A model generated the notes under the pieces. That model was not told the origin of the DNA. It made no database searches and saw nothing but the letters and a program-made list of their open reading frames with translations. Both the position numbers and the translations under genes were made by a program. A stretch of DNA of 64,000 nt, taken from contig CAXXFF010000003.1 of the NCBI GenBank assembly GCA_963676835.2, forward strand, positions 1 through 64,000, written 5' to 3'. Shown piece by piece: positions 501-29,099 of this stretch; positions within the stretch are counted from its first letter, which is position 1, and the number at the start of each line of letters is the position of its first letter. Origin of the DNA: Marispirochaeta sp. (GTDB taxonomy: Bacteria; Spirochaetota; Spirochaetia; JC444; Marispirochaetaceae).

Positions 501-548
501 GTGAATAAGTACTTTTTACTGATATTTAGTCGCAAAGCAAAATACTGA

Positions 549-622
549 ACATAACAGCGAATAGCCGGTTCCGCCTGAAGGCGTCACCCAAATTACCAAG
601 AGCTGGTTGAAAGGGAGTGCTA
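549..622 (+). repeat. Gene-proximal (R''-L'') half of a second attC-like hairpin (type B)
   Basis: ACATAAC AGCGAATAGCCG GTTCCGCCTGAAGGCGTCACC CAAATTACCAAGAGCTGG; same core as the reverse complement of 23080-23137 and 26835-26892. Confidence 0.8.
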
Positions 623-726
623 ACATAACCAGCAATTGGAGCAGTCAAACCTACTGTCACAGTTTGTGCAGTTATGTAACCAGGAGGATGCAATTTTAAG
701 GTTGTTCCGGGATGGAATCGTAGTAA
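623..726 (+). repeat. attC (type A), inverted orientation, truncated by IS21
   Basis: ACATAACCAGCAATTGGAGCAGTCAAACC is the reverse complement of the conserved attC end seen elsewhere; stops at the IS21 left end. Confidence 0.9.
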
Positions 727-924
727 TGTGTACACCGGCCGAAAACGGACACCCATTCCGGAGGAAAGCGGACAGTGATTCCGGGCAAAAACGGACACCT
801 GTTCCGGCCGAAAACGGACAGTTTTTCCGGAGCGCCGGAATTGCTTTAACCTGAAATAAGAAATCCTCGATTAACACGAGCACTCTCGTCACAATAGCAA
901 AACTACTATTTGACGGAGTACAGA

Positions 925-2471
925 ATGTCGAGAGCGAGGATTCATGTGAAACACATGCGTAAACTGCTTGCGCTCACGTACGAGAGCAAGCTGGGACTTC
1001 GGGATGTATCCCAACTGACCGGAGTATCTAAAACCACAGTCAGCGAATATCTGGTGCGATTCCGCCGCACCGGATCAGCTATGCAGCAAGCCAAAAGCTT
1101 ACCGATGAGCAGCTGCTTGGCCTGTTCGAAGAGAAAAGCAGGAAGAAAGTGAGCAGTATACACAACTAACGACACTGTTCCCCGAGTACGCCAACGGCTG
1201 AAACAGCGGGGGATGACGAAGCAGTTCCTATGGAAGGAATACCGTAGAAAGTATCCAAACGGATATAGATACAGTCAGTTCTGTCACCACTTTACGGTGT
1301 TTCTGGACTCCGGTGAGGTGACGATGCGTCAGCCCCACGAGCCTGGAGATATGGCATATCTCGACTATGCCGGAGAAACGTTCCCTTACTATCCTGATGG
1401 AGATGAGCAGCGGGCACAAATATTCGTTGCGGTACTCGGAGCAAGTCAGCTGGCCTATGTTGAAGCAAGTGAGAGCCAGAAACAAGAGGCCTTTGTCCGC
1501 TCCACAGAACGGGCTCTGAGGTACTTCGGCGGGGTTCCGCGAGCTCTCGTCCCGGATAACCTGAAGGCGGCCGTGCTCAGTGCGAGTAAATATGAGCCGG
1601 AGCTTAATCCGTTGTTCGATGATTTTGCCGATTACTACCGGACGACGATAATCCCCGCCAGGGCCTATAAACCGAAAGACAAATCCCTGGCGGAGAATGC
1701 CGTCAAGTTAACCTATCAGCGGATATTCGCCCCGCTGTACGGCAAGAGGTTCCATTCGTTGGCTGAGCTCAACCAGGCCATCGCAGAACTTCTTGAAGAA
1801 CACAATACCCGGAAACTGACAAAGCTGCAAATCTCACGGCGTCAGTTGTTTGAAGAGATCGAACGGTCTGCGCTGAAGACGCCTGCCGGGCGAACCGTAT
1901 CCAATGAAATACTTCGAAACTCACAAGGTTGCACCGGACTATCACTTTATCCTGTCAAAAGATAAGCACTACTACTCTGTTCCCTGGCAGCTGAAGGGAG
2001 AACAGGTCAAAGTGATCTTTGATGAGCGAATTATAGCGGTATATCACAAGAATGTACGCGTAGCCCAGCACCGCCGGAGCAGAAAGAAAGGACAATACTC
2101 CACACAGTCCGCACACATGCCCAGGCACCATCAGTTTGTTGAATCATGGTCGGCGGAGAAGTTTACCACCTGGGCTCAGTCGATTGGAGAAGAGACGTTC
2201 CTGGTGATTTCACATCTATTAAACAGCAAGCCACATGAGCAGCAGGCGTACAAATCCTGCCTTGGTGTGCTGAACCTGGCAAAGGATGCCGGATCACACC
2301 GGCTGAACTGGGCCTGCCGACGTGCGTTGAACTACTCGAGAATCAGTTATCGGGATGTTCGTGCATATCTGGATGAAATCATGCGACAAGAAAAGGATGA
2401 ACAGCAGAACAAAACAGGTGTTTCTCTTCGCCGATCACAAGAACCTGCGGGATTCTGCAATCTACAAATGA
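925..2471 (+). pseudogene. istA: IS21 transposase IstA, frameshifted
   Basis: Five single-base homopolymer indels versus the intact copy at 16597-18144. Confidence 0.85.
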
Positions 2472-2479
2472 GGTAACCG

Positions 2480-3220
2480 ATGAATAATAATCAGGCGACA
2501 ATCAACAAGATGACCGAGATGCGTCTCCACGGAATGGTACAGGCCTTCCGTACACTGCAGGAGACCGGACGCCATATGGATCTTACAACCGATGAGGTTA
2601 TCAGCTACCTTGTCGACTCAGAATGGGATGAGAAACACAATCGCCGACTGGCGCGCCTTGCCAATGCGGCCCGTTTCCGCTATAAGGCAGCGATTGAAGA
2701 TATCGACTATACCTTCGACCGGAATCTGGACAAAAACCAGATCTTAAGACTTGCAGCCTGCTCCTGGATATCCCGGGGGCAGGACCTGCTCATCACGGGT
2801 CCGACCGGAGGAGGAAAAAGTTTTCTTGGATCGGCTTTCGGACATCAGGCATGTCAGTATGGGTATACCGTCGCTTACTTTTCCACAACGCGTTTATTCA
2901 ATGAAATAGCGGCGGCAAGGGATGATGGAACCTACCTGAAGCACTTGTCACGCATAATGAAAAACAAGCTGGTCATTATCGATGACTTCGGTCTGGAACC
3001 GCTGGAGCATACTGCACGGATGGCATTTCTTGAAATCCTTGAAGATCGACACCGGAGAAAATCTACGATAGTGATCGCCCAACAGCCGGTAGAAAACTGG
3101 CACAGCATTATCGGTGACCCCACGATTGCCGATGCCATAATGGACCGTCTTGCCTTTCATTCTCATAGAATTGTAATAACCGGGGACTCGGTAAGGAGGA
3201 AACTCTATGCTGTAGATTGA
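2480..3220 (+). CDS. istB: IS21 AAA+ helper ATPase IstB
   Basis: Walker A GPTGGGKS, Walker B LVIIDD, ADAIMDRL motif. Confidence 0.96.
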   Translation: MNNNQATINKMTEMRLHGMVQAFRTLQETGRHMDLTTDEVISYLVDSEWDEKHNRRLARLANAARFRYKAAIEDIDYTFDRNLDKNQILRLAACSWISRGQDLLITGPTGGGKSFLGSAFGHQACQYGYTVAYFSTTRLFNEIAAARDDGTYLKHLSRIMKNKLVIIDDFGLEPLEHTARMAFLEILEDRHRRKSTIVIAQQPVENWHSIIGDPTIADAIMDRLAFHSHRIVITGDSVRRKLYAVD

Positions 3221-3322
3221 CGCAAAACGGACACCTGATCATACTGAAGACGAGGATTTACTTCCTTCAGGCAGCTGTCCGTTTTCCGCCGGAATCACTG
3301 TCCGAAATCATCGGAATACACA

Positions 3323-3410: not shown

Positions 3411-3505
3411 ACATAACGTCCCGCGAATAGCCGAAGTTACCAAGACTTCTTTGCTCGCTGTTCATTGCCTGATGTAAACAATGTGCCTGGAGAAAATTTG
3501 TGTCT
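3411..3505 (-). repeat. Distal (L'-R') half of the type-B attC-like hairpin
   Basis: Minus strand ...TCTTGGTAACTT CGGCTATTCGC GGGAC GTTATGT; homologous to 23800-23895 and 27555-27650. Confidence 0.8.
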
Positions 3506-7350: not shown

Positions 7351-7388
7351 CGGGTAAGTGCTACGATGTTCTTTGATAAATGCGTACT

Positions 7389-7676
7389 TTACAGGGACTC
7401 CCCGGCAAAGTACGCTGCGGCCTTTTTTAGGATGTCACGCTCCATTTTGACCTGCTTAAGCTCTGCCTTAAGCGCCTTTATTTCCTGGTCAGCTTCAGTA
7501 ATTTTCTTTTTGTCTTTTGACTCGCCTGATTTCCACCCGGCAACTTTGAGCCACTTGTATAAGGTGACGTCGCTAACACCGGTTGCCTTGGCAACAGCCA
7601 AAACGCCAACGCCTTCTTCCATGATTTGCTTGATAGTTTCTGCCTTAAATTCTTCCGAATATGGACTCTTAGACAC
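7389..7676 (-). CDS. IS3 OrfA (HTH)
   Basis: YSEEFKAE..TLYKW..ERDILKKAAAYFA. Confidence 0.93.
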   Translation of the reverse strand: MSKSPYSEEFKAETIKQIMEEGVGVLAVAKATGVSDVTLYKWLKVAGWKSGESKDKKKITEADQEIKALKAELKQVKMERDILKKAAAYFAGESL

Positions 7677-7803
7677 CTGATTTCTCCTTAGATTCTAAGC
7701 ATAACAGGTGTCGACAATTTTGGGGGAATTCCAACATTTAGAATTAGTATATAATTACCATTGCCTGTAATATGAACAATACACTTGGATTATACCTATG
7801 TCT

Positions 7804-7974
7804 ACATAACATCCAATTGAGCTGCGTGGCGTTAAGCTGGCGTGGTTTGTGCTGCAACAACTCACCCATTCTACTACAATATCAACTCGGAATCACATGA
7901 AACTTACATTCATCGTGTTCCCTTACTGCACAAACCATGACAGTAGCCATGTCTGCTCCAATTGCTTGTTATAC
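7804..7974 (-). repeat. attC, subtype A2 (171 bp)
   Basis: ACATAAC...GTTATAC. Confidence 0.93.
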
Positions 7975-7975
7975 T

Positions 7976-9070: not shown

Positions 9071-9101
9071 GAATAAACCTCTTATTAAAAATTTTTTGTA
9101 T

Positions 9102-9272
9102 GTATAACATCCAATTGAGCTGCATGGCGTCAAGCTGGCGTGGTTTGTGCTGCAACTCATACCGATTTTACTACAATATAAGCTCGGAATCACCTATAAT
9201 AATCATTCATCAGGTTTCCGTTACTGCACAAACCATGACAGCAGCCATGTCTGCTCCAATTGCTGGTTATAT
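9102..9272 (-). repeat. attC, subtype A2 (171 bp)
   Basis: GTATAAC...GTTATAT. Confidence 0.93.
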
Positions 9273-9277
9273 TTCTT

Positions 9278-10207
9278 TCAATCACTCACCTTATTCTGAC
9301 TTTTTACATATTCTTCAAGAGCTTCACGGGTTGTAACCCATTCCTTATTTAGCTTAATCGCCGAGAGTCTACCTTTTCGCGCAAGAAGAGATAAGTATTC
9401 CTGGGAGTAATCACAATACTGTGATGCTTCTTTCAGATTGATAAAGCCTTGCTTTTCATCGGTATTCGGCTGAATACTGTTCAGATAAATTATAAGGGTT
9501 CGTTCAATGGATTTTCCTATAAAATCTTCAAACGATTCCTCATTTCCTGTATTCGCTTCATTCAGTACTCGATAATACTTTTTCCTGTCCACTTTCAAGA
9601 TTACTGCCGGCGGATAACCATTAGCCATTAGAATAAGGTTCATAAGAAGGCGGGCTACCCTTCCATTACCATCAATAAAGGGATGTATGCATACAAATTT
9701 ATAATGGAACTGAGCTGCGAGTACTGCAATCGGCATTGAATATCGGTTTTCATAATACCAGGCTGTTAGCCTTTCCATTTTTGGTTTTACTTTTATCGCC
9801 TGAGGAGGTATCAATCGCGCACCTACTATTCTAACATTCGTTCTTCTGTAAGCTCCAGCTTCTAAATCATCTATTCCTTTGAGGATAATTCTATGACATT
9901 CACGGATTACACTTTCACTAAGGTCTTCTTTTTTCTGAATAAGCGTATTTAGGAATTCAATGCCTTCTTTATGGTTTATCGCCTCAAGGTGTTCATTAAC
10001 TGATTTTCCACCTATTGTGATGCCTTGATTCAAGACGACTTCTGTTTCCTGCAGGCTGAGAGTATTGCCTTCAATGGCGTTTGAGTTGTAAGTCCATTCT
10101 AAAGCGAGTTGTTCTTGCAATTTTCGCGAGATTGAAGCATTTAGCGGCCTATATTTATCAAGTTCTCGCTTTTTGCCTTCTATGCTCGATAGAAGCTTTT
10201 CATTCAT
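9278..10207 (-). CDS. Fic family AMPylase with C-terminal HTH
   Basis: HPFIDGNGR catalytic loop, SNAIEGN inhibitory motif, C-terminal LKEAS..YLSLLARKGRL HTH-like segment. Confidence 0.92.
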   Translation of the reverse strand: MNEKLLSSIEGKKRELDKYRPLNASISRKLQEQLALEWTYNSNAIEGNTLSLQETEVVLNQGITIGGKSVNEHLEAINHKEGIEFLNTLIQKKEDLSESVIRECHRIILKGIDDLEAGAYRRTNVRIVGARLIPPQAIKVKPKMERLTAWYYENRYSMPIAVLAAQFHYKFVCIHPFIDGNGRVARLLMNLILMANGYPPAVILKVDRKKYYRVLNEANTGNEESFEDFIGKSIERTLIIYLNSIQPNTDEKQGFINLKEASQYCDYSQEYLSLLARKGRLSAIKLNKEWVTTREALEEYVKSQNKVSD

Positions 10208-10266
10208 ATCGGTTAACCTTTATTCCGTTACAACCGATATTTTACTACTAAACTTCCTGAAAGTAA

Positions 10267-10447
10267 ATATAACATCCAATTGAGCTGCAAAGCCGTGCCG
10301 AAGGTATTGGCATGTGTTTTTGCTGCCTGGTTAAAACATTATACTACACCTTTTTTAGCACAAACACTTCTTATAACAGTACCTTTGTTTAAGCTCTTAG
10401 CAAAAACCATGACAATAGGCTTTGACTGCTCCAATTGCTGGTTATGT
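10267..10447 (-). repeat. attC, subtype A1 (181 bp)
   Basis: ATATAAC...GTTATGT. Confidence 0.93.
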
Positions 10448-11594: not shown

Positions 11595-11765
11595 ACATAA
11601 CATCCAATTGAGCTGCGTGGCGTTAAGCTGGCGTGGTTTGTGCTGCAACAACTCACCCATTCTACTACAATATCAACTCGGAATCACATGAAACTTACAT
11701 TCATCGTGTTCCCTTACTGCACAAACCATGACAGTAGCCATGTCTGCTCCAATTGCTTGTTATAC
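11595..11765 (-). repeat. attC, subtype A2 (171 bp)
   Basis: Appears identical to 7804-7974. Confidence 0.93.
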
Positions 11766-11766
11766 T

Positions 11767-12861
11767 TCAATTTTGGTATAGCTCAAAATGTATCTTCTGT
11801 ATGTTTTCTATTGCATCAAATCTAAGCAAACCCGTATATGTTTCATTTTTTACTATATGGAGACAACCCATTTCACTGATCATTGTATAATTATCAAGAT
11901 TATAAATTTCAGTATAGTAATGGTCTTTTACCTGACCAGACACATTTTTCTGAACTGTATAAAGTATTTCATTATCAATCGTCTCAATAATATCATTATA
12001 TAATACAGTGTACTCCTGGAACCCAACAAGCTTAGTCGCTTTATTGTTTGTAATATCTAATTTATAAATTAAATCATTTTTATTTGTTAACGCATATAAT
12101 GCAAGATAATTGTTTTCTGGATTAAATGAACCATTATAGTGCAATACAACATCTTTAATCGCGTCCAGTTTGACAGCTGGTTCTTCACCATTCAAATCAA
12201 GGATATATAGTGATACAGAGCCATCAGAGATTCGTTCATCATATACAATATGATCATCATACATGTCTATAAAAATATATGGAACGCGAATTCTATCTTC
12301 AATAAAAGGTGTTTCACATATTATTTTGGTTGATTTATCATTCAGATTAAGTGCTTTAATTTTAGAAATACTTTCTTCAAAATCATGCTCGATCCAACAT
12401 ATCCAATTTACACCAACACTGACATGATTTGGGTAATAACCATTTTCACTCTTTGGTAATACTTCGTTGTATTTTTCTAAAACCTTTGTTGCGGTGTTAT
12501 AATAGTATATTGCTTCTTCTTTTTTACTGTTAACAGCAGTAAACACAATCACAGAGTGATTTGAGTCGTAATCACGGATTATAGTACTTTCTTCATCAAA
12601 AATGACCTTATCTACTTTGTCCGATTTAAAATTATACTCGATTAGCTTCGAATAATCCTGGGTGTAATTACTCGCTATAAAGAATACGGCATTATTTTCT
12701 TGATAGTATTTTGTATCAAGAATTATTCGTTTCGGTAAAATTTGGCTATCTGAACTAAAAGCTTTTGTCTCTACTGGATAAATACTTTTACTTATCATGT
12801 TTGTAGTTTGACAGGAAAATAAAAAAACAAGAGAAAGCAATGTTAAAAACAGTTTTTTCAC
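11767..12861 (-). CDS. Lipoprotein, duplicate cassette
   Basis: Protein identical to 7976-9070. Confidence 0.85.
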   Translation of the reverse strand: MKKLFLTLLSLVFLFSCQTTNMISKSIYPVETKAFSSDSQILPKRIILDTKYYQENNAVFFIASNYTQDYSKLIEYNFKSDKVDKVIFDEESTIIRDYDSNHSVIVFTAVNSKKEEAIYYYNTATKVLEKYNEVLPKSENGYYPNHVSVGVNWICWIEHDFEESISKIKALNLNDKSTKIICETPFIEDRIRVPYIFIDMYDDHIVYDERISDGSVSLYILDLNGEEPAVKLDAIKDVVLHYNGSFNPENNYLALYALTNKNDLIYKLDITNNKATKLVGFQEYTVLYNDIIETIDNEILYTVQKNVSGQVKDHYYTEIYNLDNYTMISEMGCLHIVKNETYTGLLRFDAIENIQKIHFELYQN

Positions 12862-12892
12862 GAATAAACCTCTTATTAAAAATTTTTTGTAT

Positions 12893-13062
12893 GTATAACA
12901 TCCAATTGAGCTGCATGGCGTGAAGCTGGCGTGGATTGTGCTGCAACTCTATCCCATTTTACTACGATATCAGTTCGGAATCACCTGAAACTTACATTCA
13001 CCAGTTTTCCTTACTGCACAAACCATGACAGTAGCCATGTCTGCTCCAATTGCTGGTTATAT
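12893..13062 (-). repeat. attC, subtype A2 (170 bp)
   Basis: GTATAAC...GTTATAT. Confidence 0.93.
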
Positions 13063-13079
13063 TGCCATTGGTTTTTGGT

Positions 13080-13820
13080 TTACACTTTAGGAAAAATTCT
13101 AGTTTCGTTATTCCCAAGCCCATTGTTCCTTAATATCTCTGATATATTTTTATTTATGATTTCAGATCCTTCACTTGATGGTTCAATTGGCGAGATTAGC
13201 GAGTAAAGACGGTCCTCTACGCAAATTTTCCTAAGATCTAATATGTTGAAACTGAAGTCGGATGCAACTGAAATAATAACATCATTAAAAATTGATAGTA
13301 TTGTTTTGAGAATTGGTGATAACACGGGTATTGAGTCATAAATTGTACAAACCATAACATTTGTAAATTTCATAGAAAGTTTTTTACATAAATCTGTGTA
13401 GTCGTAGCGAAAACTCTCTTGTATTTTATTGAGTGCATAAATTTGCGGAGACATTGCATCAACAATATTCATGAACATCATATTTGAAATACCAGCAGAT
13501 CTACCTTCAGAAAGTCTCTGTTTTTTGTTCACAATTTCGGATTTATACTCGTTATTCTCGGTTTCATACGCAGGCATAAAATTATTTAAAGCATGTATCG
13601 CATCATTTCCACCAGAAGAAACAATGACGTGCGTAATTTCTTTATCAAGTTTTTCTACTTGTTTTATTGTATCTAAAGTAATACTGCCATCAATAGCCAC
13701 TAACAAGGGCTCAAATTCGCCCTGAAAGGTTTTTTGTGCCCATTCTATATGACACATTTCGTTTCCAACATATGGTTTGTTATCAAAAACGGAATCGCCA
13801 ATAAAAGCTATTTTTTTCAT
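13080..13820 (-). CDS. SGNH/GDSL hydrolase family protein
   Basis: IGDSVFDN, SSGGNDA, SPIEPS..G blocks; ATG at 13820 after GAGG. Confidence 0.8.
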   Translation of the reverse strand: MKKIAFIGDSVFDNKPYVGNEMCHIEWAQKTFQGEFEPLLVAIDGSITLDTIKQVEKLDKEITHVIVSSGGNDAIHALNNFMPAYETENNEYKSEIVNKKQRLSEGRSAGISNMMFMNIVDAMSPQIYALNKIQESFRYDYTDLCKKLSMKFTNVMVCTIYDSIPVLSPILKTILSIFNDVIISVASDFSFNILDLRKICVEDRLYSLISPIEPSSEGSEIINKNISEILRNNGLGNNETRIFPKV

Positions 13821-13881
13821 TTCTACCTCAAGTAACACTACTATTTCTTTTACTATCTCATATTACTGCAATTTTTTGTCA

Positions 13882-14066
13882 ATATAACATCCAATTGAGC
13901 TGCAAAGCCGGGCCGCGAAGCGGTATTGGCATGTGTTTTTGCTGCCTAAATCACTTCATTATACCACCTATCTTTCACTCTCTTTCCAGAAACAGCATCC
14001 ACGACCATTATGCTAATGCAAATAACCATGACAATAGGTTTTGTCTGCTCCAATTGCTGGTTAAAC
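13882..14066 (-). repeat. attC, subtype A1 (185 bp)
   Basis: ATATAAC...GTTAAAC. Confidence 0.93.
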
Positions 14067-14392
14067 CGACATTGTGATGCCTTACATACAGCACTTAGAA
14101 AACGATGCCACTGGTTACATGACTTTCTTACTTCGGAGCGCACGACCATTCAAAAAGATGGCCCTTGCAGAACTATCATTTTGTTTATTCATCGGGTGCA
14201 TTACCAGATACTCGCCTGAAATCTCTATAAATTTACCCGGATCTTGCCCATAAACAATCAGAGGGCCCTATTCTTTCCCGATTAATTGAAAATCCAAGTA
14301 GATCCAACCATTTCGATTTTCTTGGCATGTGACCCACATTTCCATGCGTTTTCAGCGCAGGGCCTGATACATTTTCTCAATGGCGATTTAAC
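14060..14392. other. ORF-less cassette cargo, long imperfect palindrome (copy 1)
   Basis: No credible ORF; homologous to 24064-24395; ends complementary in blocks over ~90 nt. Confidence 0.75.
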
Positions 14393-14553
14393 ATCCAATT
14401 GAGCTGCATGGCGTTAAGCTGGCGTGGCTTGTGCTGCAACTACTTCTCCATTTTACTACGATATCAGTTCGGAATCACCAGGAATTTACATTCAACAGGT
14501 TTACTTAACTGCACAAACCATGACAGTGGAATTCCCCCGATTCTGTCGACACT

Positions 14554-15372
14554 TTACGGGGTTAAATACATAGCTTCGAATTGAGCCGGACTTCGACGGT
14601 CCAAATGGCTATGCCGCCTTTTAGGATTGTAAAATAACTCTATGTAATTGAAAATATCTTTGCGTGCTACCTCCCTGTTTTTGTAGATTTTTTTCTTTAC
14701 CCGTTCTTTTTTCAAGCTGGAGAAGAAGGATTCAACAACGGCATTATCCCAGCAATTGCCTCTTCGACTCATACTCGGATCCAAATTGTGGAACTCACAG
14801 AAGCTATCCCATTCATAGCTGGTGAACTGGGTACCTTGATCGGAGTGAATTAGAACTGTCTGTTTTGGCCGTCTTCGTTTGACTGCCATAAACAAAGCAT
14901 CCATGACCAAGGCTGTTTTCTGGTTACTCTTCATAGACCATCCAACTATTCGCCTGCTGAACAGATCTATGACAACTGCCAGGTACAGCCAGCCCTCACA
15001 GGTTCGAATATATGTTATGTCGATACACCAGACACGATTAGGATCGCTAACAGTGAACTCACGATTGAGCTGATTAAGACTGTGTACAGGTCCTTCTGGA
15101 GGAATGTAAGGATGCTTTTTGCGGCGGTGAGCACCCTGTATACCTGCTTCTTTCATAAGTCGCGCAATACGGTTAACACTGTAAGAATAGCCAGCCTCCT
15201 TGAAATCCTGATGAATATTGGGACTTCCGTAAGTGCCTCCACTTTCTTCCCAATAATGGCGGATCTCTTGGGTTATTACCCGGTTTTGGATGGCTCGTTT
15301 GGATTCTGGGTTCTTAATCCACCGATAGAAGCCTGATGGATGGACTTTCATGGCCCTGCACATCTGTCGCAC
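14554..15372 (-). CDS. IS3 OrfB DDE transposase
   Basis: Protein identical to 6532-7350. Confidence 0.95.
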   Translation of the reverse strand: MRQMCRAMKVHPSGFYRWIKNPESKRAIQNRVITQEIRHYWEESGGTYGSPNIHQDFKEAGYSYSVNRIARLMKEAGIQGAHRRKKHPYIPPEGPVHSLNQLNREFTVSDPNRVWCIDITYIRTCEGWLYLAVVIDLFSRRIVGWSMKSNQKTALVMDALFMAVKRRRPKQTVLIHSDQGTQFTSYEWDSFCEFHNLDPSMSRRGNCWDNAVVESFFSSLKKERVKKKIYKNREVARKDIFNYIELFYNPKRRHSHLDRRSPAQFEAMYLTP

Positions 15373-15410
15373 CGGGTAAGTGCTACGATGTTCTTTGATA
15401 AATGCGTACT

Positions 15411-15698
15411 TTACAGGGACTCCCCGGCAAAGTACGCTGCGGCCTTTTTTAGGATGTCACGCTCCATTTTGACCTGCTTAAGCTCTGCCTTAAGCGCCTT
15501 TATTTCCTGGTCAGCTTCAGTAATTTTCTTTTTGTCTTTTGACTCGCCTGATTTCCACCCGGCAACTTTGAGCCACTTGTATAAGGTGACGTCGCTAACA
15601 CCGGTTGCCTTGGCAACAGCCAAAACGCCAACGCCTTCTTCCATGATTTGCTTGATAGTTTCTGCCTTAAATTCTTCCGAATATGGACTCTTAGACAC
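15411..15698 (-). CDS. IS3 OrfA
   Basis: Protein identical to 7389-7676. Confidence 0.93.
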   Translation of the reverse strand: MSKSPYSEEFKAETIKQIMEEGVGVLAVAKATGVSDVTLYKWLKVAGWKSGESKDKKKITEADQEIKALKAELKQVKMERDILKKAAAYFAGESL

Positions 15699-16596
15699 CT
15701 GATTTCTCCTTAGATTCTAAGCATAACAGGTGTCGACAATTTTGGGGGAATTCCACAGTAGCCATGTCTGCTCCAATTGCTGGTTATATTTCTTTCAATC
15801 ACTCACCTTATTCTGGCTTTTTACATATTCTTCCAATGCTTCACGGGTTGTAACCCATTCCTTATTTAGCTTAATCGCCGAGAGTCTACCTTTTCGCGCA
15901 AGAAGAGATAAGTATTCCTGGGAGTAATCACAATACTGAGATGCTTCTTTCAGATTGATAAAGCCTTGTTTTTCATCGGTATTCGGCTGAATACTGTTCA
16001 GATATATTATAAGAGTTCTTTCAATGGATTTTCCTATGAAATCTTCAAACGATTCCTCATTTCCTGTATTCGCTTCATTCAATACTCGATAATACTTTTT
16101 TCTGTCTACTTTCAAGATTACTGCCGGTGGATAACCATTTGCCATTAGAATAAGGTTCATAAGAAGGCGTGCTACCCTTCCATTACCATCAATAAAGGGA
16201 TGTATGCATACAAATTTATAATGAAATTGAGCTGCAAGTACTGCAATTGGCATTGAATATCGGTTTTCATAATACCAGGCGATGAGCTCTTCCATTTTCG
16301 GTTTAACTTTTATCGCCTGAGGTGGTATCAATCGCGCACCTACTATTCTAACATTCGTTCTTCTGTAAGCTCCAGCTTCTAAATCATCTATTCCTTTGTG
16401 TGTACACCGGCCGAAAACGGACACCCATTCCGGAGGAAAGCGGACAGTGATTCCGGGCAAAAACGGACACCTGTTCCGGCCGAAAACGGACAGTTTTTCC
16501 GGAGCGCCGGAATTGCTTTAACCTGAAATAAGAAATCCTCGATTAACACGAGCACTCTCGTCACAATAGCAAAACTACTATTTGACGGAGTACAGA

Positions 16597-18144
16597 ATGT
16601 CGAGAGCGAGGATTCATGTGAAACACATGCGTAAACTGCTTGCGCTCACGTACGAGAGCAAGCTGGGACTTCGGGATGTATCCCAACTGACCGGAGTATC
16701 TAAAACCACAGTCAGCGAATATCTGGTGCGATTCCGCCGCACCGGGATCAGCTATGCAGCAAGCCAAAAGCTTACCGATGAGCAGCTGCTTGGCCTGTTC
16801 GAAGAGAAAAAGCAGGAAGAAAGTGAGCAGTATACACAACTAACGACACTGTTCCCCGAGTACGCCAAACGGCTGAAACAGCGGGGGATGACGAAGCAGT
16901 TCCTATGGAAGGAATACCGTAGAAAGTATCCAAACGGATATAGATACAGTCAGTTCTGTCACCACTTTACGGTGTTTCTGGACTCCGGTGAGGTGACGAT
17001 GCGTCAGCCCCACGAGCCTGGAGATATGGCATATCTCGACTATGCCGGAGAAACGTTCCCTTACTATCCTGATGGAGATGAGCAGCGGGCACAAATATTC
17101 GTTGCGGTACTCGGAGCAAGTCAGCTGGCCTATGTTGAAGCAAGTGAGAGCCAGAAACAAGAGGCCTTTGTCCGCTCCACAGAACGGGCTCTGAGGTACT
17201 TCGGCGGGGTTCCGCGAGCTCTCGTCCCGGATAACCTGAAGGCGGCCGTGCTCAGTGCGAGTAAATATGAGCCGGAGCTTAATCCGTTGTTCGATGATTT
17301 TGCCGATTACTACCGGACGACGATAATCCCCGCCAGGGCCTATAAACCGAAAGACAAATCCCTGGCGGAGAATGCCGTCAAGTTAACCTATCAGCGGATA
17401 TTCGCCCCGCTGTACGGCAAGAGGTTCCATTCGTTGGCTGAGCTCAACCAGGCCATCGCAGAACTTCTTGAAGAACACAATACCCGGAAACTGACAAAGC
17501 TGCAAATCTCACGGCGTCAGTTGTTTGAAGAGATCGAACGGTCTGCGCTGAAGACGCTGCCGGGCGAACCGTATCCAATGAAATACTTCGAAACTCACAA
17601 GGTTGCACCGGACTATCACTTTATCCTGTCAAAAGATAAGCACTACTACTCTGTTCCCTGGCAGCTGAAGGGAGAACAGGTCAAAGTGATCTTTGATGAG
17701 CGAATTATAGCGGTATATCACAAGAATGTACGCGTAGCCCAGCACCGCCGGAGCAGAAAGAAAGGACAATACTCCACACAGTCCGCACACATGCCCAGGC
17801 ACCATCAGTTTGTTGAATCATGGTCGGCGGAGAAGTTTACCACCTGGGCTCAGTCGATTGGAGAAGAGACGTTCCTGGTGATTTCACATCTATTAAACAG
17901 CAAGCCACATGAGCAGCAGGCGTACAAATCCTGCCTTGGTGTGCTGAACCTGGCAAAGGATGCCGGATCACACCGGCTGAACTGGGCCTGCCGACGTGCG
18001 TTGAACTACTCGAGAATCAGTTATCGGGATGTTCGTGCATATCTGGATGAAATCATGCGACAAGAAAAGGATGAACAGCAGAACAAACAGGTGTTTCTCT
18101 TCGCCGATCACAAGAACCTGCGGGATTCTGCAATCTACAAATGA
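16597..18144 (+). CDS. istA: IS21 transposase IstA
   Basis: N-terminal HTH, YLDYAG, VPDNLK, KDKSLAE (DDE), HYYSVP. Confidence 0.96.
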   Translation: MSRARIHVKHMRKLLALTYESKLGLRDVSQLTGVSKTTVSEYLVRFRRTGISYAASQKLTDEQLLGLFEEKKQEESEQYTQLTTLFPEYAKRLKQRGMTKQFLWKEYRRKYPNGYRYSQFCHHFTVFLDSGEVTMRQPHEPGDMAYLDYAGETFPYYPDGDEQRAQIFVAVLGASQLAYVEASESQKQEAFVRSTERALRYFGGVPRALVPDNLKAAVLSASKYEPELNPLFDDFADYYRTTIIPARAYKPKDKSLAENAVKLTYQRIFAPLYGKRFHSLAELNQAIAELLEEHNTRKLTKLQISRRQLFEEIERSALKTLPGEPYPMKYFETHKVAPDYHFILSKDKHYYSVPWQLKGEQVKVIFDERIIAVYHKNVRVAQHRRSRKKGQYSTQSAHMPRHHQFVESWSAEKFTTWAQSIGEETFLVISHLLNSKPHEQQAYKSCLGVLNLAKDAGSHRLNWACRRALNYSRISYRDVRAYLDEIMRQEKDEQQNKQVFLFADHKNLRDSAIYK

Positions 18145-18152
18145 GGTAACCG

Positions 18153-18893
18153 ATGAATAATAATCAGGCGACAATCAACAAGATGACCGAGATGCGTCTC
18201 CACGGAATGGTACAGGCCTTCCGTACACTGCAGGAGACCGGACGCCATATGGATCTTACAACCGATGAGGTTATCAGCTACCTTGTCGACTCAGAATGGG
18301 ATGAGAAACACAATCGCCGACTGGCGCGCCTTGCCAATGCGGCCCGTTTCCGCTATAAGGCAGCGATTGAAGATATCGACTATACCTTCGACCGGAATCT
18401 GGACAAAAACCAGATCTTAAGACTTGCAGCCTGCTCCTGGATATCCCGGGGGCAGGACCTGCTCATCACGGGTCCGACCGGAGGAGGAAAAAGTTTTCTT
18501 GGATCGGCTTTCGGACATCAGGCATGTCAGTATGGGTATACCGTCGCTTACTTTTCCACAACGCGTTTATTCAATGAAATAGCGGCGGCAAGGGATGATG
18601 GAACCTACCTGAAGCACTTGTCACGCATAATGAAAAACAAGCTGGTCATTATCGATGACTTCGGTCTGGAACCGCTGGAGCATACTGCACGGATGGCATT
18701 TCTTGAAATCCTTGAAGATCGACACCGGAGAAAATCTACGATAGTGATCGCCCAACAGCCGGTAGAAAACTGGCACAGCATTATCGGTGACCCCACGATT
18801 GCCGATGCCATAATGGACCGTCTTGCCTTTCATTCTCATAGAATTGTAATAACCGGGGACTCGGTAAGGAGGAAACTCTATGCTGTAGATTGA
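18153..18893 (+). CDS. istB: IS21 ATPase IstB
   Basis: Protein identical to 2480-3220. Confidence 0.96.
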   Translation: MNNNQATINKMTEMRLHGMVQAFRTLQETGRHMDLTTDEVISYLVDSEWDEKHNRRLARLANAARFRYKAAIEDIDYTFDRNLDKNQILRLAACSWISRGQDLLITGPTGGGKSFLGSAFGHQACQYGYTVAYFSTTRLFNEIAAARDDGTYLKHLSRIMKNKLVIIDDFGLEPLEHTARMAFLEILEDRHRRKSTIVIAQQPVENWHSIIGDPTIADAIMDRLAFHSHRIVITGDSVRRKLYAVD

Positions 18894-19385
18894 CGCAAAA
18901 CGGACACCTGATCATACTGAAGACGAGGATTTACTTCCTTCAGGCAGCTGTCCGTTTTCCGCCGGAATCACTGTCCGAAATCATCGGAATACACATTTGA
19001 GGATAATTCTATGACATTCACGGATTACACTTTCACTAAGGTCTTCTTTTTTCTGAATAAGCGTATTTAGGAATTCAATGCCTTCTTTATGGTTTATCGC
19101 CTCAAGGTGTTCATTAACTGATTTTCCACCTATTGTGATGCCTTGATTCAGGACGACTTCTGTTTCCTGCAGGCTGAGAGTATTACCTTCAATTGCGTTT
19201 GAGTTGTAGATCCATTCTAATACTAGTTGTTCATGCAATTTCCGCGAGATTGAAGCATTCAGCGGCCTATATTTATCAAGTTCTCGCTTTTTGCCTTCTA
19301 TGCTCGATAGAAGCTTTTTATCCATATCGGTTAATCCTTTTTACGTCACAACCGATATTTTACTATTAAACTTTCTGAAAAGTAA

Positions 19386-22882: not shown

Positions 22883-23064
22883 ATATAACGCCCAATTGAG
22901 CTGCAAAGCCGGGCCGCTTTAGCGGCATTGGCATGTGTTTTTGCTGCCTGATTACAGCATTATATAACAGTTGTATCTCGGAACCGCAACTTTTATTCAA
23001 GACTGTCTGGATCCTTGCAAAAACCATGACAATAGGCTTTGACTGCTCCAATTGCTTGTTATGG
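22883..23064 (-). repeat. attC, subtype A1 (182 bp)
   Basis: ATATAAC...GTTATGG. Confidence 0.93.
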
Positions 23065-23137
23065 AGCACCCCTTTATATCCAGCTCTTGGTAATTTGGGT
23101 GACGCCTTCAGGCGGAACCGGCTATTCGCTGTTATTG
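23065..23137 (-). repeat. Gene-proximal half of the type-B attC-like hairpin
   Basis: Minus strand CAATAAC AGCGAATAGCCG...AAATTACCAAGAGCTGG. Confidence 0.8.
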
Positions 23138-23196
23138 GAAGTGTCCTTTATTTGCGAGAAATCCACAAAAGGACAGGACGTTCTTTTGTGGATGGA

Positions 23197-23412
23197 CTAT
23201 GACGCTTTCCAATTTATATTAAGCTTCAAGTTCTTCTTTGCACAATCCGCAAGATAAAGATTTATTAATTGCTGGTATTTTATACCAGATTCTTCAGACA
23301 TTTCTTTAAAGTAATCAATCGTATCTTCATCAAGGCGTATTGTAATTTGTTTTTTCAGTTTATTAATATAAGGATTCTTTTTTGCATTAGAAAAGTCATA
23401 ATGATCTCTCAT
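23197..23412 (-). CDS. brnA: BrnA-family antitoxin
   Basis: MRDHYDFS..KQITIRLDEDTIDYFK..YQQLIN; follows BrnT. Confidence 0.88.
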   Translation of the reverse strand: MRDHYDFSNAKKNPYINKLKKQITIRLDEDTIDYFKEMSEESGIKYQQLINLYLADCAKKNLKLNINWKAS

Positions 23413-23416
23413 ATTC

Positions 23417-23701
23417 CTACCCTCCATATTGCTTAGTTTCATCTTTATCAGCTTTTCTGGCTGATATTATTCGTATTATTTCATCATCTGATCTGTAACA
23501 GTGACACACAATCAGAACCTTTAAACTTTGGGAAAGACCCATTATTAAAAACCGATCTTCTTCGGACGAATGATCAGGATCATGGATTATTAATGCAGAA
23601 GGATCAAAAAAGACCGTTTTTGCCTCTTCAAAAGTTACTTTATGCTTTTTTGTATTAGATTGGTTCTTTTCTTCATCCCATTCAAATTGAATGTGTGTCA
23701 T
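23417..23701 (-). CDS. brnT: BrnT-family toxin
   Basis: FEWDEEKN..KHKVTFEEA..EEDRF..IRIISARKA. Confidence 0.93.
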   Translation of the reverse strand: MTHIQFEWDEEKNQSNTKKHKVTFEEAKTVFFDPSALIIHDPDHSSEEDRFLIMGLSQSLKVLIVCHCYRSDDEIIRIISARKADKDETKQYGG

Positions 23702-23707
23702 ACATAT

Positions 23708-23736
23708 ATTATAACTACATTGTAGTGAATGGTCAA
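23708..23736 (-). promoter_or_regulatory. brnTA promoter with operator palindrome
   Basis: TTGACC-N17-TATAAT; ACTACA-T-TGTAGT in the spacer; predicted +1 near the ATG. Confidence 0.7.
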
Positions 23737-23799
23737 TTTATTTGTTTTTATACTCAAGCCAGGGATGGCGCCGCAACTATATTCTATGAAGGACATTTC

Positions 23800-23895
23800 C
23801 AATAACGTCCCGCGAATAGCCGAAGTTACCAAGACATCTGTACACGCTGTCCCTTGCCTTGTGTAAACAATGTACCTGGGCTGTACCCTGTGTCT
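23800..23895 (-). repeat. Distal half of the type-B attC-like hairpin
   Basis: Minus strand ...TCTTGGTAACTT CGGCTATTCGC GGGAC GTTATTG. Confidence 0.8.
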
Positions 23896-24070
23896 ACATA
23901 ACATCCAATTGAGCTGCATGCCGTCAAGTTGGCGTGCTTTATGCTGTTTTATAACCAGTATTATACAATTACTTTCGCTCGGAATCACATGGATTCTTTG
24001 CCCTTCACTTTCAACCTTCCATTGCATAAAGCATGACAATAGGCATGACTGCTCCAATTGCTGGTTAAAC
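23896..24070 (-). repeat. attC, divergent A2-like variant (175 bp)
   Basis: ACATAAC...GTTAAAC. Confidence 0.92.
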
Positions 24071-24395
24071 CGACATTGTGATGCCTTACATAACGCACTT
24101 GGAAAACGAAGCCATAGGTTGGATGACTTTTAGATTTCGAAGCGCACGACCATTCAAAAAGATGGCCCTTGCAGAACTATCATTTTGTTTATTCATCGGG
24201 TGCATTACCAAGAACTCGCCTGAAATATCGATACCTTTACCCGGATCTTGCCCATAATCAATCGAAGAGCCCTAATCTTTCCCGATTAATAAAAATCCAA
24301 GTAGATCCAACCATTTCGATTTTCTTGTCATGTGACCCACATTTCCATGCGTTTTCAGCGCAGGGCCTGATACATTTTCTCAATGGCGATTTAAC
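24064..24395. other. ORF-less cassette cargo, long imperfect palindrome (copy 2)
   Basis: Homologous to 14060-14392 with substitutions and a net 1-nt length difference. Confidence 0.75.
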
Positions 24396-26637: not shown

Positions 26638-26819
26638 ATATAACGCCCAATTGAGCTGCAAAGCCGGGCCGCTTTAGCGGCATTGGCATGTGTTTTTGCT
26701 GCCTGATTACAGCATTATATAACAGTTGTATCTCGGAACCGCAACTTTTATTCAAGACTGTCTGGATCCTTGCAAAAACCATGACAATAGGCTTTGACTG
26801 CTCCAATTGCTTGTTATGG
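26638..26819 (-). repeat. attC, subtype A1 (182 bp)
   Basis: Appears identical to 22883-23064. Confidence 0.93.
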
Positions 26820-26892
26820 AGCACCCCTTTATATCCAGCTCTTGGTAATTTGGGTGACGCCTTCAGGCGGAACCGGCTATTCGCTGTTATTG
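26820..26892 (-). repeat. Gene-proximal half of the type-B attC-like hairpin
   Basis: Same as 23065-23137. Confidence 0.8.
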
Positions 26893-26951
26893 GAAGTGTC
26901 CTTTATTTGCGAGAAATCCACAAAAGGACAGGACGTTCTTTTGTGGATGGA

Positions 26952-27167
26952 CTATGACGCTTTCCAATTTATATTAAGCTTCAAGTTCTTCTTTGCACAA
27001 TCCGCAAGATAAAGATTTATTAATTGCTGGTATTTTATACCAGATTCTTCAGACATTTCTTTAAAGTAATCAATCGTATCTTCATCAAGGCGTATTGTAA
27101 TTTGTTTTTTCAGTTTATTAATATAAGGATTCTTTTTTGCATTAGAAAAGTCATAATGATCTCTCAT
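26952..27167 (-). CDS. brnA: BrnA-family antitoxin (duplicate)
   Basis: Protein identical to 23197-23412. Confidence 0.88.
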   Translation of the reverse strand: MRDHYDFSNAKKNPYINKLKKQITIRLDEDTIDYFKEMSEESGIKYQQLINLYLADCAKKNLKLNINWKAS

Positions 27168-27171
27168 ATTC

Positions 27172-27456
27172 CTACCCTCCATATTGCTTAGTTTCATCTT
27201 TATCAGCTTTTCTGGCTGATATTATTCGTATTATTTCATCATCTGATCTGTAACAGTGACACACAATCAGAACCTTTAAACTTTGGGAAAGACCCATTAT
27301 TAAAAACCGATCTTCTTCGGACGAATGATCAGGATCATGGATTATTAATGCAGAAGGATCAAAAAAGACCGTTTTTGCCTCTTCAAAAGTTACTTTATGC
27401 TTTTTTGTATTAGATTGGTTCTTTTCTTCATCCCATTCAAATTGAATGTGTGTCAT
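27172..27456 (-). CDS. brnT: BrnT-family toxin (duplicate)
   Basis: Protein identical to 23417-23701. Confidence 0.93.
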   Translation of the reverse strand: MTHIQFEWDEEKNQSNTKKHKVTFEEAKTVFFDPSALIIHDPDHSSEEDRFLIMGLSQSLKVLIVCHCYRSDDEIIRIISARKADKDETKQYGG

Positions 27457-27554
27457 ACATATATTATAACTACATTGTAGTGAATGGTCAATTTATTTGT
27501 TTTTATACTCAAGCCAGGGATGGCGCCGCAACTATATTCTATGAAGGACATTTC

Positions 27555-27650
27555 CAATAACGTCCCGCGAATAGCCGAAGTTACCAAGACATCTGTACAC
27601 GCTGTCCCTTGCCTTGTGTAAACAATGTACCTGGGCTGTACCCTGTGTCT
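27555..27650 (-). repeat. Distal half of the type-B attC-like hairpin
   Basis: Same as 23800-23895. Confidence 0.8.
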
Positions 27651-27704
27651 ACATAACATAACCACTTATCCACTTTTCAGTATAACTCTGTAATTCCAAG
27701 TAAC
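27651..27704 (-). other. attI: attI recombination site (core G|TTATGT at 27657-27651)
   Basis: First cassette starts at a GTT core with no attC arm beyond it; extra core-like GTTATAC (27686-27680) and GTTACTT (27704-27698) upstream. Confidence 0.8.
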
Positions 27705-27839
27705 ACTGCACAATAAATCCAGAAACGTTTTATTTATCATCCCATGAAGCAGTATACCACTTCTCACGGTATCAGTTATACGTATGCAGTATAACTCTAT
27801 ACAGGAGGTTTCGCTATCAAATTTTCAACCTACCTTTCG

Positions 27840-29099
27840 ATGAAAACAGGCTTGTCTACAAGAAAACAACCATACTTCATCTCTCATGCAAGGGAATTCT
27901 ATCAGTTTTGCCTGGAAGGAAAGCTTGATATCATGGCTTACACAACAGTTGAGGCCTTTGTATCCGGTTTATCAAAGGACATGCCGGATTGGCTCATATT
28001 ACAACATAGAGAGTCCGTTTATGCTTTTCAGCGTTACTGGAAACTATATGGTCATTCAAAAAACAAAAATAGCAGGGATAATATAAAATCATGGGAGGAT
28101 GCTGAATCAGCTATGCGTAATTCACTTCGCCTACATCACCGTTCAAGAGAAACTGAAAAATCTTACCTGAGATGGATTCAGCAGTTTAAGGATCATATAA
28201 AAATTAAGAATCCTCAGGATGTAACAGATAAGCATTTTGTATTGTTTATCACCTTTCTTGCTGTAAACCGTCATATATCTTCTTCTACACAAAATCAATC
28301 CTTTAATGCTCTCTTATTTTTCTACCGGTCAGTTTTAAACCGAACGCCTGAAGGAATCCGCGACTCAGTAAGATCTTGTATACCCCCCAAACTGCCGGAG
28401 GTTATGAGCAGAAATGAGATCTCATACTTACTTGCTAAGCTTAAACCTCCATATCGTTTAATGTGTGCCTTGATCTATGGCGGAGGCTTGAGAATAAACG
28501 AATGCCTGAATCTTCGTATAAAAGATATAGACTACACTAATCAATGTCTGTACATACGAAGTGGCAAAGGAAACAAAGACCGTAGAACCTTGCTTTCTTC
28601 TGTAATATTAGAGGATATAAAACTGCATATCAGCGGAAATGTTAAACCTCTTTATCAGAAAGACCGTATCGAGGGTAATCCTGGAGTACCCCTTCCTGAG
28701 GCTCTATCCAGAAAATTCCCCAATGCTGCCAATGAATGGGGTTGGTATTGGGTATTTCCTTCAAAAAGAATTTCTTTTGATCCCGTCAGTGCGGTAACAG
28801 CCAGGTTTCATATTTACCCCACCTCTTTACAGCGGGAGTTTCATACTGTAAAGAAGCAGATCGGGATATTGCGCCATGTTAGTGTGCATACGTTACGGCA
28901 TAGCTTTGCAACTCATATGATCGAAGATGGATATGACGTCAGAACGGTGCAGGAACTTTTAGGTCATTCATCAGTCAACACCACCATGATCTACACGCAT
29001 ATTGCAGAAAAAAACAAGCTTGGCGCACGCAGCCCCCTCGGTACTGTGTGGAACTCTAATCCAATACAGCAGGCTATGAGGGAAAATCGGGAAGATTAA
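27840..29099 (+). CDS. intI: Integron integrase (long form with N-terminal extension)
   Basis: GGGLR, GKGNKDR, HTLRHSFATH, LLGH, TTMIYTH plus integron-specific insert LPEALSRKFPNAANEWGWYWVFPS. Confidence 0.97.
   Translation: MKTGLSTRKQPYFISHAREFYQFCLEGKLDIMAYTTVEAFVSGLSKDMPDWLILQHRESVYAFQRYWKLYGHSKNKNSRDNIKSWEDAESAMRNSLRLHHRSRETEKSYLRWIQQFKDHIKIKNPQDVTDKHFVLFITFLAVNRHISSSTQNQSFNALLFFYRSVLNRTPEGIRDSVRSCIPPKLPEVMSRNEISYLLAKLKPPYRLMCALIYGGGLRINECLNLRIKDIDYTNQCLYIRSGKGNKDRRTLLSSVILEDIKLHISGNVKPLYQKDRIEGNPGVPLPEALSRKFPNAANEWGWYWVFPSKRISFDPVSAVTARFHIYPTSLQREFHTVKKQIGILRHVSVHTLRHSFATHMIEDGYDVRTVQELLGHSSVNTTMIYTHIAEKNKLGARSPLGTVWNSNPIQQAMRENRED

Follow-up and report, generated by a model that had tools for sequence, protein, structure and literature searches.

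A two-layer attC site in a Marispirochaeta integron as a probable adaptor between two cassette-array systems

Integron cassettes are thought to be tied to a single attC site and to be exchanged among the integrases that tolerate the structure of that site. A cassette in the first 64 kb of contig C3 of Marispirochaeta sp. (genome G000; 4.43 Mb in four contigs), a stretch of 64,000 nucleotides hereafter called the window, raises the question of why a cassette should carry the parts of two. This cassette, which lies on the minus strand at 22883-23902 and encodes the toxin-antitoxin (TA) pair brnTA, is closed by the long attC of its host integron, and its genes are bracketed by the two halves of a second attC-like site; an identical copy at 26638-27657 is the first cassette of the array, next to attI. 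In the following, "A" denotes the long attC family of the canonical integron and "B" the second attC family, which forms the brnTA half-sites; G001-G005 are genomes of congeners, G-numbers in general denote genomes of relatives, and L-numbers denote individual loci in the comparison set. As read from sequence and genome comparison, the two-layer attC is probably an adaptor that lets cassettes pass between the canonical integron and a second cassette-array system. The arrangement is real and beyond chance, and it belongs to a larger picture than the initial annotation had proposed.

The order of the parts is that given by the initial annotation. On the cassette strand, the core of the preceding A site is followed by a leader, the B 3′ half, the genes, the B 5′ half, a short linker and finally the inner A site of the cassette (Table 1). 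The two halves are complementary in 7/7 positions of the core and in 11/11 and 11/12 positions of the stems, as had been claimed, and on the gene side of the B core a further 11 nt pair as well (23789-23799 with 23138-23148). The 5′ half (23085-23137) matches positions 3-44 of the B model (nhmmer E 1.3e-6), and the 3′ half of a second composite cassette in the window (3412-3442) matches positions 51-81, so that the halves represent a B site divided precisely at the apical loop. Of the motif at their apex, TCTTGGTAAYTT, the 4.43-Mb genome contains six copies, all at composite sites and all within the integron, and CGGCTATTCGC at no more than one mismatch gives nine matches in the window, compared with 0.55 expected. 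The half-site pairing and the motif are not due to chance. Because the crossover of the inner A site falls at G|TTATAT, the brnTA cassette proper ends at G 22889, and positions 22883-22888 (TTATAT) begin the next cassette.

When the cassette is circularized in silico by joining the halves at the A crossover, the junction is 351 nt long and holds the whole A site in the loop of the B site, as the initial annotation had predicted for the circular form; the outer loop is 265 nt. The bottom strand of this junction folds into fully nested hairpins at -72.3 kcal/mol, compared with -36.9 ± 4.0 kcal/mol for 60 shuffled sequences (z -8.7). Complementarity of 11-20 nt specific to each cassette was also noted just outside the cores of B-type cassettes (23789-23799/23138-23148; 3399-3410/537-548; L098:12940-14790), and the outer stem would thus extend into the cassette ends in the circular form. 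The contigs of four out of 13 sequencing runs contained no usable evidence of excision circles, and the joints between A sites that they contain are explicable by repeats. Contigs of sequencing runs X2 and X3 contain divergent fragments of the brnTA cassette, among them the leader and the 3′ half.

The two layers differ in how they have been preserved. Between the two composites of the window, the B arms are identical at 33/33 positions of the 3′ half and 56/56 positions of the 5′ half, and the parts around them have diverged: the leaders agree in 44/61 columns (23835-23895 compared with 3446-3505), the rest of the linker in 12/18 positions and the inner A sites in 77/110. The side hairpin of the 5′ half differs between G000 and G004 by paired substitutions, as judged by eye. 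Either selection or gene conversion acts on the B arms specifically. Further homologous leaders are present in G004 and in G002 (L024), and counterparts of the 22-nt linker in G003, G004 and a metagenome-assembled genome (MAG) labelled KSB1.

The initial annotation had suggested a genome search for uninterrupted B sites, and such sites were found. Contiguous B sites of 70-150 nt stand between genes in arrays on contig C2 of G000, in the congener G002 and at about 50 of the 58 loci returned by a degenerate pattern scan of one genome per species, the B sites among them being recognized by eye; the other eight (L047, L054, L067, L073, L076, L079, L080 and L090) resemble chance matches. On C2, two uninterrupted B sites flank a higBA pair, and G002 possesses, far from its intI gene, an array that reads gene-B-brnTA-B-higBA-B-gene-B-gene-B. 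The cores of these cassettes match as those of recombined cassettes do: each of the four cassettes of the G002 array starts with the complement of its own R″ (by eye), and in the C2 array core matching holds at four of five junctions, with one mismatch at the fifth. A 91-nt query over the B 5′ half detected relatives in 8 of 31 genomes of the class. The scan loci are mostly from Spirochaetia, but the B sequence is conserved across several phyla, with other records labelled Bacteroidales, Flavobacteriales, Cloacimonadota, Desulfobacterales, KSB1, Nanoarchaeota, Saccharibacteria and a Firmicute. Well-formed B sites were seen in MAG records labelled Nanoarchaeota, "archaeon" and Saccharibacteria (L056, L081, L083, L087 and L045), for which binning errors are possible.

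The consensus of the B site is 82 nt long and reads nnnTAAC-A-GCGAATAKGCGG-(~20-nt bulge)-AAATTGGCC-loop-GGCCAACTT-CGCMTATTCGC-GGAAC-GTTAnnn. In an alignment of 21 B sites of 80-84 nt, 95.6% of the cells are paired, compared with 19-37% when the partners are slid by 1-3 columns, and six pairs show compensatory changes in 26 cells, a count reached by none of 500 shuffles; because the selecting pattern fixes part of the 5′ arm, invariance there says nothing. B sites thus possess the inverse core and core of attC sites with a paired and covarying L stem, and they occur uninterrupted between cassettes with core matching. They differ from canonical attC sites in three respects: the spacer is asymmetric (1 nt on the 5′ arm and 5 nt on the 3′ arm), the single extrahelical bases are replaced by a ~20-nt bulge that is often a small hairpin, and the sequence is conserved across phyla. 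B is a real family of attC-like sites.

These contiguous sites bear on two readings in which the half-sites would have nothing to do with cassette recombination. In the first, which the initial annotation had named as a possible refutation, the halves are the terminal inverted repeats of a small non-autonomous transposon, comparable to a miniature inverted-repeat transposable element (MITE), that carried brnTA into an A-type cassette. Integron mobilization units flanked by MITEs rely on transposon ends that act on double-stranded DNA and produce target duplications, and the present locus resembles them in that inverted repeats, of 46-64 nt with the extensions included, bracket a two-gene module in an array rich in insertion sequence (IS) elements. 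Here, the repeats instead belong to one hairpin site, whose two arms were separated by recombination in its loop. No target-site duplication accompanies the brnTA halves, all six copies of the apical motif lie in the integron, the arms correspond to positions 3-44 and 51-81 of the B model, and elsewhere the same sequence forms one contiguous hairpin between cassettes with its arms facing each other. Moreover, the gene-side ends vary with each cassette, whereas the outer ends are conserved, so a transposon origin is very improbable.

In the second, the halves would form a long-range duplex between the 5′ and 3′ untranslated regions, or a terminator, that regulates brnTA at the RNA level, and the resemblance to attC would be incidental. 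The halves do lie in transcribed flanks if transcription enters from upstream, and TA cassettes carry their own promoter, but the promoter-like site of brnTA is located downstream of the 3′ half, so that this half would not be part of the brnTA transcript; the consensus scan that gave this site was as a whole not enriched (36 matches, compared with 39.8 in shuffled sequences). The same arms also flank unrelated cassettes and non-coding content. An Rfam scan of positions 1-30000 at E <= 1 returned three chance microRNA matches only, Rfam being without an attC family. Regulation by such a duplex can hardly be the explanation.

Which of the two cores has been used for movement can be judged from cassettes that recur in different genomes. 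Over 1022 nt (22883-23904) the two brnTA copies of G000 do not differ at a single position, and their identity extends no further than the A crossovers. It follows that the inner site was the route by which both copies moved, probably in the recent past, which agrees with the initial annotation as to the route. In G002, by contrast with this inner boundary, a cassette 90% identical to brnTA over 740 nt is bounded by plain B sites, and the shared sequence spans both B arms and ends within the apical stems. Because brnTA is thus a plain B-type cassette in a congener, the earlier suggestion that a foreign B-type cassette had received the host attC in its loop fits the data.

A short cassette with the cores GCTTAAC/GTTAAGC, here called Y, was found in three configurations. 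Next to IntI in G004 (L027 and L032), it is opened at A and the order is A-leader-B3′-Y-B5′-linker-A. At another locus of the same genome (L031) it is closed: Y, B5′, linker, A, leader and B3′ are contiguous, and another cassette with a B-form site follows at the B core. This contiguous composite also folds into nested hairpins on the bottom strand. Finally, in L098, a contig of the KSB1-labelled MAG, Y is preceded by a plain B variant ending in G|TTAAGC and followed by B5′-linker-A, with an unrelated cassette joined directly at the A core. Homologous cassettes thus have their boundaries at the A core in some genomes and at the B core in others, which indicates that crossovers have taken place at both cores.

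These observations also affect the proposal that the composite is a relic, that is, a B-type cassette that gained an A site in its loop by an illegitimate event and has since been an ordinary A cassette with inert B halves. Such a history would account for the A-core boundaries of both brnTA copies, for the lack of any B-core junction of a composite in G000, and for a decayed version in G003, which consists of B5′, linker and a degenerate A site and has no upstream half. It does not readily account for B arms that are 100% identical in two cassettes whose linkers and inner A sites share no more than about 70% identity, and the contiguous composite of G004 that is followed by another cassette, like the B-bounded upstream end in L098, is hard to obtain without crossovers at B cores. 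A relic is therefore unlikely.

A second system to which the outer site could belong was found on C2. In two other Spirochaetia genomes, a gene for a tyrosine recombinase of about 270-340 residues lies a few kb from B sites in a syntenic setting, and its G000 homologue (C2:570374-571222, 282 residues) adjoins a B array that begins on the opposite strand about 240 nt upstream of the gene and extends past two IS66 copies and higBA toward 552 kb. Orthologues stand beside B arrays in G002 (71% identity), G004, G001, G003 and G005. Public sources name this protein only tyrosine recombinase or XerD; among NCBIfam models its best match is NF040815 ("tyrosine recombinase/integron integrase"), and its best relative among solved structures is IntI4 (PDB 2a3v, E 2.4e-34). 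The IntI of the window scores 355.7 bits on TIGR02249 in one stretch (cut-off 265) and contains the insert specific to IntI (alignment A1). The short family aligns with IntI on both sides of this insert, and about 45 residues that include the IntI hallmark stretch are absent (alignment A1), so that it matches TIGR02249 in two stretches with 177-205 bits, below the cut-off, and does not possess the additional domain that characterizes IntI. The first stretch of the C2 protein (177.4 bits) ends at model position 177, and the second stretch of the G034 homologue begins at 230. We take the missing insert to be the part of IntI that holds the I2 helix. Homologues of the short recombinase were also noted as named in records of Patescibacteria. 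A recombinase that had been placed 3 kb from a B site in Mobilitalea was withdrawn because the match lies on another contig, and no homologue of the short recombinase was found in Mobilitalea at E <= 1e-15.

The two site families are distributed according to the recombinase gene that they adjoin. Homologues of the short recombinase were found at E <= 1e-40 in 37 of 201 sampled genomes of the class. In 100 kb comprising 30 of these loci, the B profile matched within 1.5 kb of the gene at eight, in seven of them on the divergent strand, and the matching loci include other families of the class; no full A site was found in the 30 loci. In a control set of 12 canonical IntI loci, A sites were present in all six genomes of the genus, and the sole B matches were the split halves of composites (G000 and G004). 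Over the whole 4.43-Mb genome of G000 the B profile gave 11 matches, all but one in the C2 array or in the composites of the window. In this genus, A arrays accompany canonical IntI and B arrays accompany the short recombinase, and the C2 array with its recombinase looks like a platform of its own. This partition supports the earlier suggestion that the composite is usable by two types of integrase.

An alternative is that canonical IntI recombines both A and B sites, in which case the composite would be no more than one large, branched attC that offers this enzyme two cores, and the short recombinase would be unrelated, for example an Xer-like protein or the integrase of an element. The ATAAC/GTTAT cores common to A and B and the mixed A/B arrays of G004 L031 and L098 favour such an arrangement, as does the absence of the IntI insert from the short recombinase; clusters of attC sites lacking integron-integrases (CALINs) are considered to be served in trans by IntI (PMC9668308). 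It is made somewhat unlikely by the clean partition of A with IntI and B with the short recombinase in six genomes of the genus, by the divergent arrangement at seven of the eight loci with B matches, other families of the class included, and by G028, which has B sites and no match to the IntI query at E <= 1e-20.

The adaptor would operate as follows. Its outer layer is a B-type attC, and its inner layer is a complete A-type attC at the apex of B, flanked by the 22-nt and 61-nt linkers. In the single-stranded or circular cassette both hairpins could form, with crossovers at G|TTATGT in the inner and G|TTATTG in the outer site. Recombination at the inner core would bring the cassette into an IntI array and would thereby split the B hairpin, so that its 3′ half stands at the start of the cassette and its 5′ half immediately precedes the A site, an arrangement seen twice in the window. 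If the outer core recombined instead, the same cassette would enter a B array with the composite uninterrupted. Each recombinase would act on the site family that neighbours it, and the B arms would still be active in G000. The A site presumably entered the loop of B, but insertion of an A-type cassette by IntI in its simple form does not yield the observed order of parts.

Several points weigh against this adaptor. The use of the crossovers is throughout deduced from genome comparison, and within G000 the A core alone has served to move the two brnTA copies. Gene conversion, rather than function, could account for the identical B arms. The top strand of the 351-nt junction folds at -64.6 kcal/mol (z -5.9) into a minimum-free-energy structure without the classical A hairpin. 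Two of the comparator assemblies are weak: G004 consists of 630 contigs with 12% contamination, and the MAG that contains L098 carries the label of a different phylum. In L031, moreover, the R′ that follows the composite fits the R″ of Y better than that of the next cassette. Since A-type, B-type and composite sites share one array in G004 L031 and in L098, a single integrase might handle both families. No B match was found within 1.5 kb at 22 of the 30 short-recombinase loci, and a metagenome scan for the 5′ arm specific to composites returned two loci, both chance matches in genes, and no further composites. In addition, the absence of the stretch that we take to hold the I2 helix makes the action of the short recombinase on hairpins uncertain.

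Both layers resemble canonical attC sites in their RYYYAAC-like and GTTRRRY-like cores, imperfect L stems and position at the 3′ end of the cassette, and in a probable crossover at G|TT, to which the cassette-specific core matching points. They differ from canonical sites in that one attC here has, as its terminal structure, an entire attC equipped with cores of its own. The outer loop of 265 nt compares with terminal structures of 3-100 nt in natural class 1 sites (PMC7439510). An attC type of Spirochaetes has been modelled (PMC8352920). Full-text literature searches for nested, composite, double or hybrid attC sites found no description of one attC inside another, and a further search listed no work on IntI relatives that lack the additional domain and have cassette arrays next to them.

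CALINs have been described as attC clusters without an integron integrase (Cury et al. 2016; PMC4889954). Because no IntI with the specific domain adjoins them, B arrays would count as CALINs by the usual definition. Their neighbour in this genus, and in several further families of the class, is nevertheless a conserved short recombinase resembling IntI, usually in divergent orientation. This enzyme resembles IntI in scoring best on IntI4 among solved structures and in matching TIGR02249 on both sides of the insert, and differs from it by the absence of the insert and by its sub-threshold score. Single-strand recombination by IntI has been tied to the I2 helix (PMC7790495), and IntI and Xer-type recombinases are set apart by this helix or the additional domain (PMC7790495; PMC4792948). 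Ghaly et al. (2022; PMC9668308) reported attC sites that archaeal MAGs (among them Nanoarchaeota) share at 95-100% identity with bacteria (among them Spirochaetota and Desulfobacterota), and described most archaeal arrays as lacking IntI. The B scan matched MAGs with the same labels; the consulted passages of that study mention no nesting.

A broader reading can be offered tentatively, and is to be taken as possible rather than probable: two hairpin-based cassette systems would coexist in one cell, with nested attC sites as adaptors for the trade of cassettes between them, and the second system would be run by an IntI relative without the presumably I2-bearing insert and would use an 82-nt attC as a "currency" across phyla. 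Under such an arrangement, attC loops would be evolvable docking points through which an existing cassette gains a new recombination specificity. With two complete sets of cores, one nested in the other, a cassette would acquire a second specificity in a simple and natural manner and could move between arrays served by different recombinases. A conserved attC family beside an IntI-like enzyme without the insert, to which single-strand recombination is attributed, makes testable whether hairpin sites can be recombined without it, which bears on the origins of integrons, and many attC clusters regarded as integrase-less may have an unrecognized recombinase next to them.

Table 1. Positions in the window of the parts of the composite cassettes and of the adjoining integron features
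Feature	Positions	Strand	Remarks
brnTA cassette, copy 1	26638..27657	-	same parts as copy 2 (22883-23902), shifted by +3755
A-type attC of preceding cassette	23896..24070	-	crossover G|TTATGT at 23901/23902; 16-site alignment; nhmmer E 8e-35
Leader, 61 nt	23835..23895	-	joins inner A core to B 3′ arm
B 3′ half, 35 nt	23800..23834	-	TCTTGGTAACTT-CGGCTATTCGC-GGGAC-GTTATTG: apical stem, L′, 5-nt bulge, R′
Cassette-specific extension	23789..23799	-	complementary to 23138-23148; kept in the B-type brnTA cassette of G002
Promoter-like site of brnTA	23708..23736	-	TTGACC-17-TATAAT; consensus scan, 11 of 12
brnT toxin gene	23417..23701	-	Pfam BrnT_toxin, E 8e-30
brnA antitoxin gene	23197..23442	-	Pfam BrnA_antitoxin, E 1e-7
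B 5′ half, 53 nt	23085..23137	-	CAATAAC-A-GCGAATAGCCG-side hairpin (CGCC-TGAA-GGCG)-AAATTACCAAGA: R″, L″, apical stem
Linker, 22 nt	23063..23084	-	between B 5′ arm and inner A site; last two bases overlap the 182-nt A stretch as delimited
182-nt stretch with inner A-type attC of brnTA cassette	22883..23064	-	nhmmer E 2.9e-46; crossover G|TTATAT
Second composite cassette, start	3411..3505	-	leader 3446-3505; B 3′ half 3411-3445, R′ GTTATGT
Second composite cassette, inverted end	537..726	+	extension 537-548; B 5′ half 549-601; linker; 5′ part of A site 624-726, cut by IS21
IS21 copy, istA broken	727..3322	+	Pfam IstB and Mu-transposase C; 99.8% identical to 16399-18995
Canonical integron integrase IntI	27840..29099	+	Pfam Phage_integrase and SAM_4; NCBIfam TIGR02249
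attI region	27657..27839	-	between intI and first cassette; limits approximate, function putative

The initial annotation had also recognized the same architecture on an unrelated cassette, and this holds for its parts but not for their present arrangement. The second composite cassette of the window has, like brnTA, its own matched pair of B cores (ACATAAC/GTTATGT, compared with CAATAAC/GTTATTG), as had been stated, together with matched 12-nt extensions and both halves. The IS21 copy splits this cassette and bounds an inverted segment, so that the complementary halves now read on the same strand, unlike the inverted halves of brnTA, the 5′ half having come to lie on the strand opposite to that of the cassette start. 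Contig C1 carries a second, inverted IS21, and the small gene of the second cassette is split between the two copies with a 6-bp duplication; the segment was therefore inverted secondarily, and the architecture was the same before. A simple intramolecular inversion by IS21 in a single step was rejected because the far flank of the C1 copy does not fit. Window positions 1-726 and C1:1-2650 were noted as an inverted array segment bracketed by two inverted IS21 copies. A "short" A site considered at 624-680 was likewise rejected, because IS21 has interrupted an ordinary A site there and left its 5′ part; positions 2-113 of the A model lie at 624-731.

The host array is a canonical integron. Its cassettes lie on the minus strand from about 27657 down to about 3500, one A site closing each cassette, and the array adjoins IntI and attI here as in the five congeners; the junction of the first cassette with the attI region reads ...GTTATG|TTATGT. 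Sixteen complete A sites of 170-185 nt were aligned and share nnATAAC-nAG-CAATTGGAGCAG ... GCAGCTCAATTGG-nn-GTTAT; like attC sites in general, they possess an inverse core and a core (RYYYAAC ... GTTRRRY) and internal imperfect inverted repeats. The motif CCAATTGAGCTGCA at two or fewer mismatches gives 18 matches, compared with 0.65 expected. The first six bases of the cassette complement its own inverse core perfectly in 13 of the 16 A cassettes and in five of six bases in the other three (by eye), which is the expected trace of a crossover at G|TT. A conserved TATAAT-like box had been considered as a promoter inside A sites, and was dropped because the consensus scan did not flag it.

IS21 and IS3 insertions interrupt the A array, which runs on into contig C1. 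The start of the window contig, in reverse complement, forms the first 20 nt of C1; an A-profile search found further A sites on contig C4. One IS3-family element (14388-15788; open reading frames 14554-15372 and 15411-15698) is inserted in an A site, which is split near model position 30-36. A second IS3-family copy (6532-7680) follows a cassette start (7809) that has the first ~45 nt of the leader and no B half. Several neighbouring cassettes and their A sites occur in duplicate (7804-10447 and 11595-14066; 24075-24391 and 14066-14391), with near-identical starts and flanks before the attC, which suggests segmental duplication or repeated capture. The C2 array (C2:552000-571222; L105 and L106) is interrupted by an IS21 as well, and its cassettes include vapBC, higBA and GNAT genes.

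The loops of B sites range from short tetraloops to a family of inserts of about 66 nt and a module in common with the interior of A sites. The ~66-nt insert (TTTGAYAAA...TTTATCAA...) was seen in distant genomes (L069, L077, L043 and L006), including a record labelled Marinimicrobia, and in the first site beside the short recombinase of G000 (C2:570020-570135). The A-site interior (TTGTCATGGTTTTTGC ... GCAAAAACACATGCCAA plus a side hairpin; for example in 22883-23064) recurs as the loop module of B sites in L065 and L086 and of the site of a cassette Z in L031 (L031:6090-6300). Congeners, in turn, have A sites of about 100 nt without the interior, in which positions 2-50 of the A model are joined to 124-180 (L023 and L028). 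Since the A interior recurs in B loops and A sites exist without it, attC loops look modular. A further nested B site, a contiguous one, lies on C2 (about C2:568195-568470; L105:17193-17466). The hairpin inside its loop is of another kind, with ATATAAC/GTTATAT cores and an interior resembling that of A; because it escapes the A profile, this inner site is not a close relative of A.

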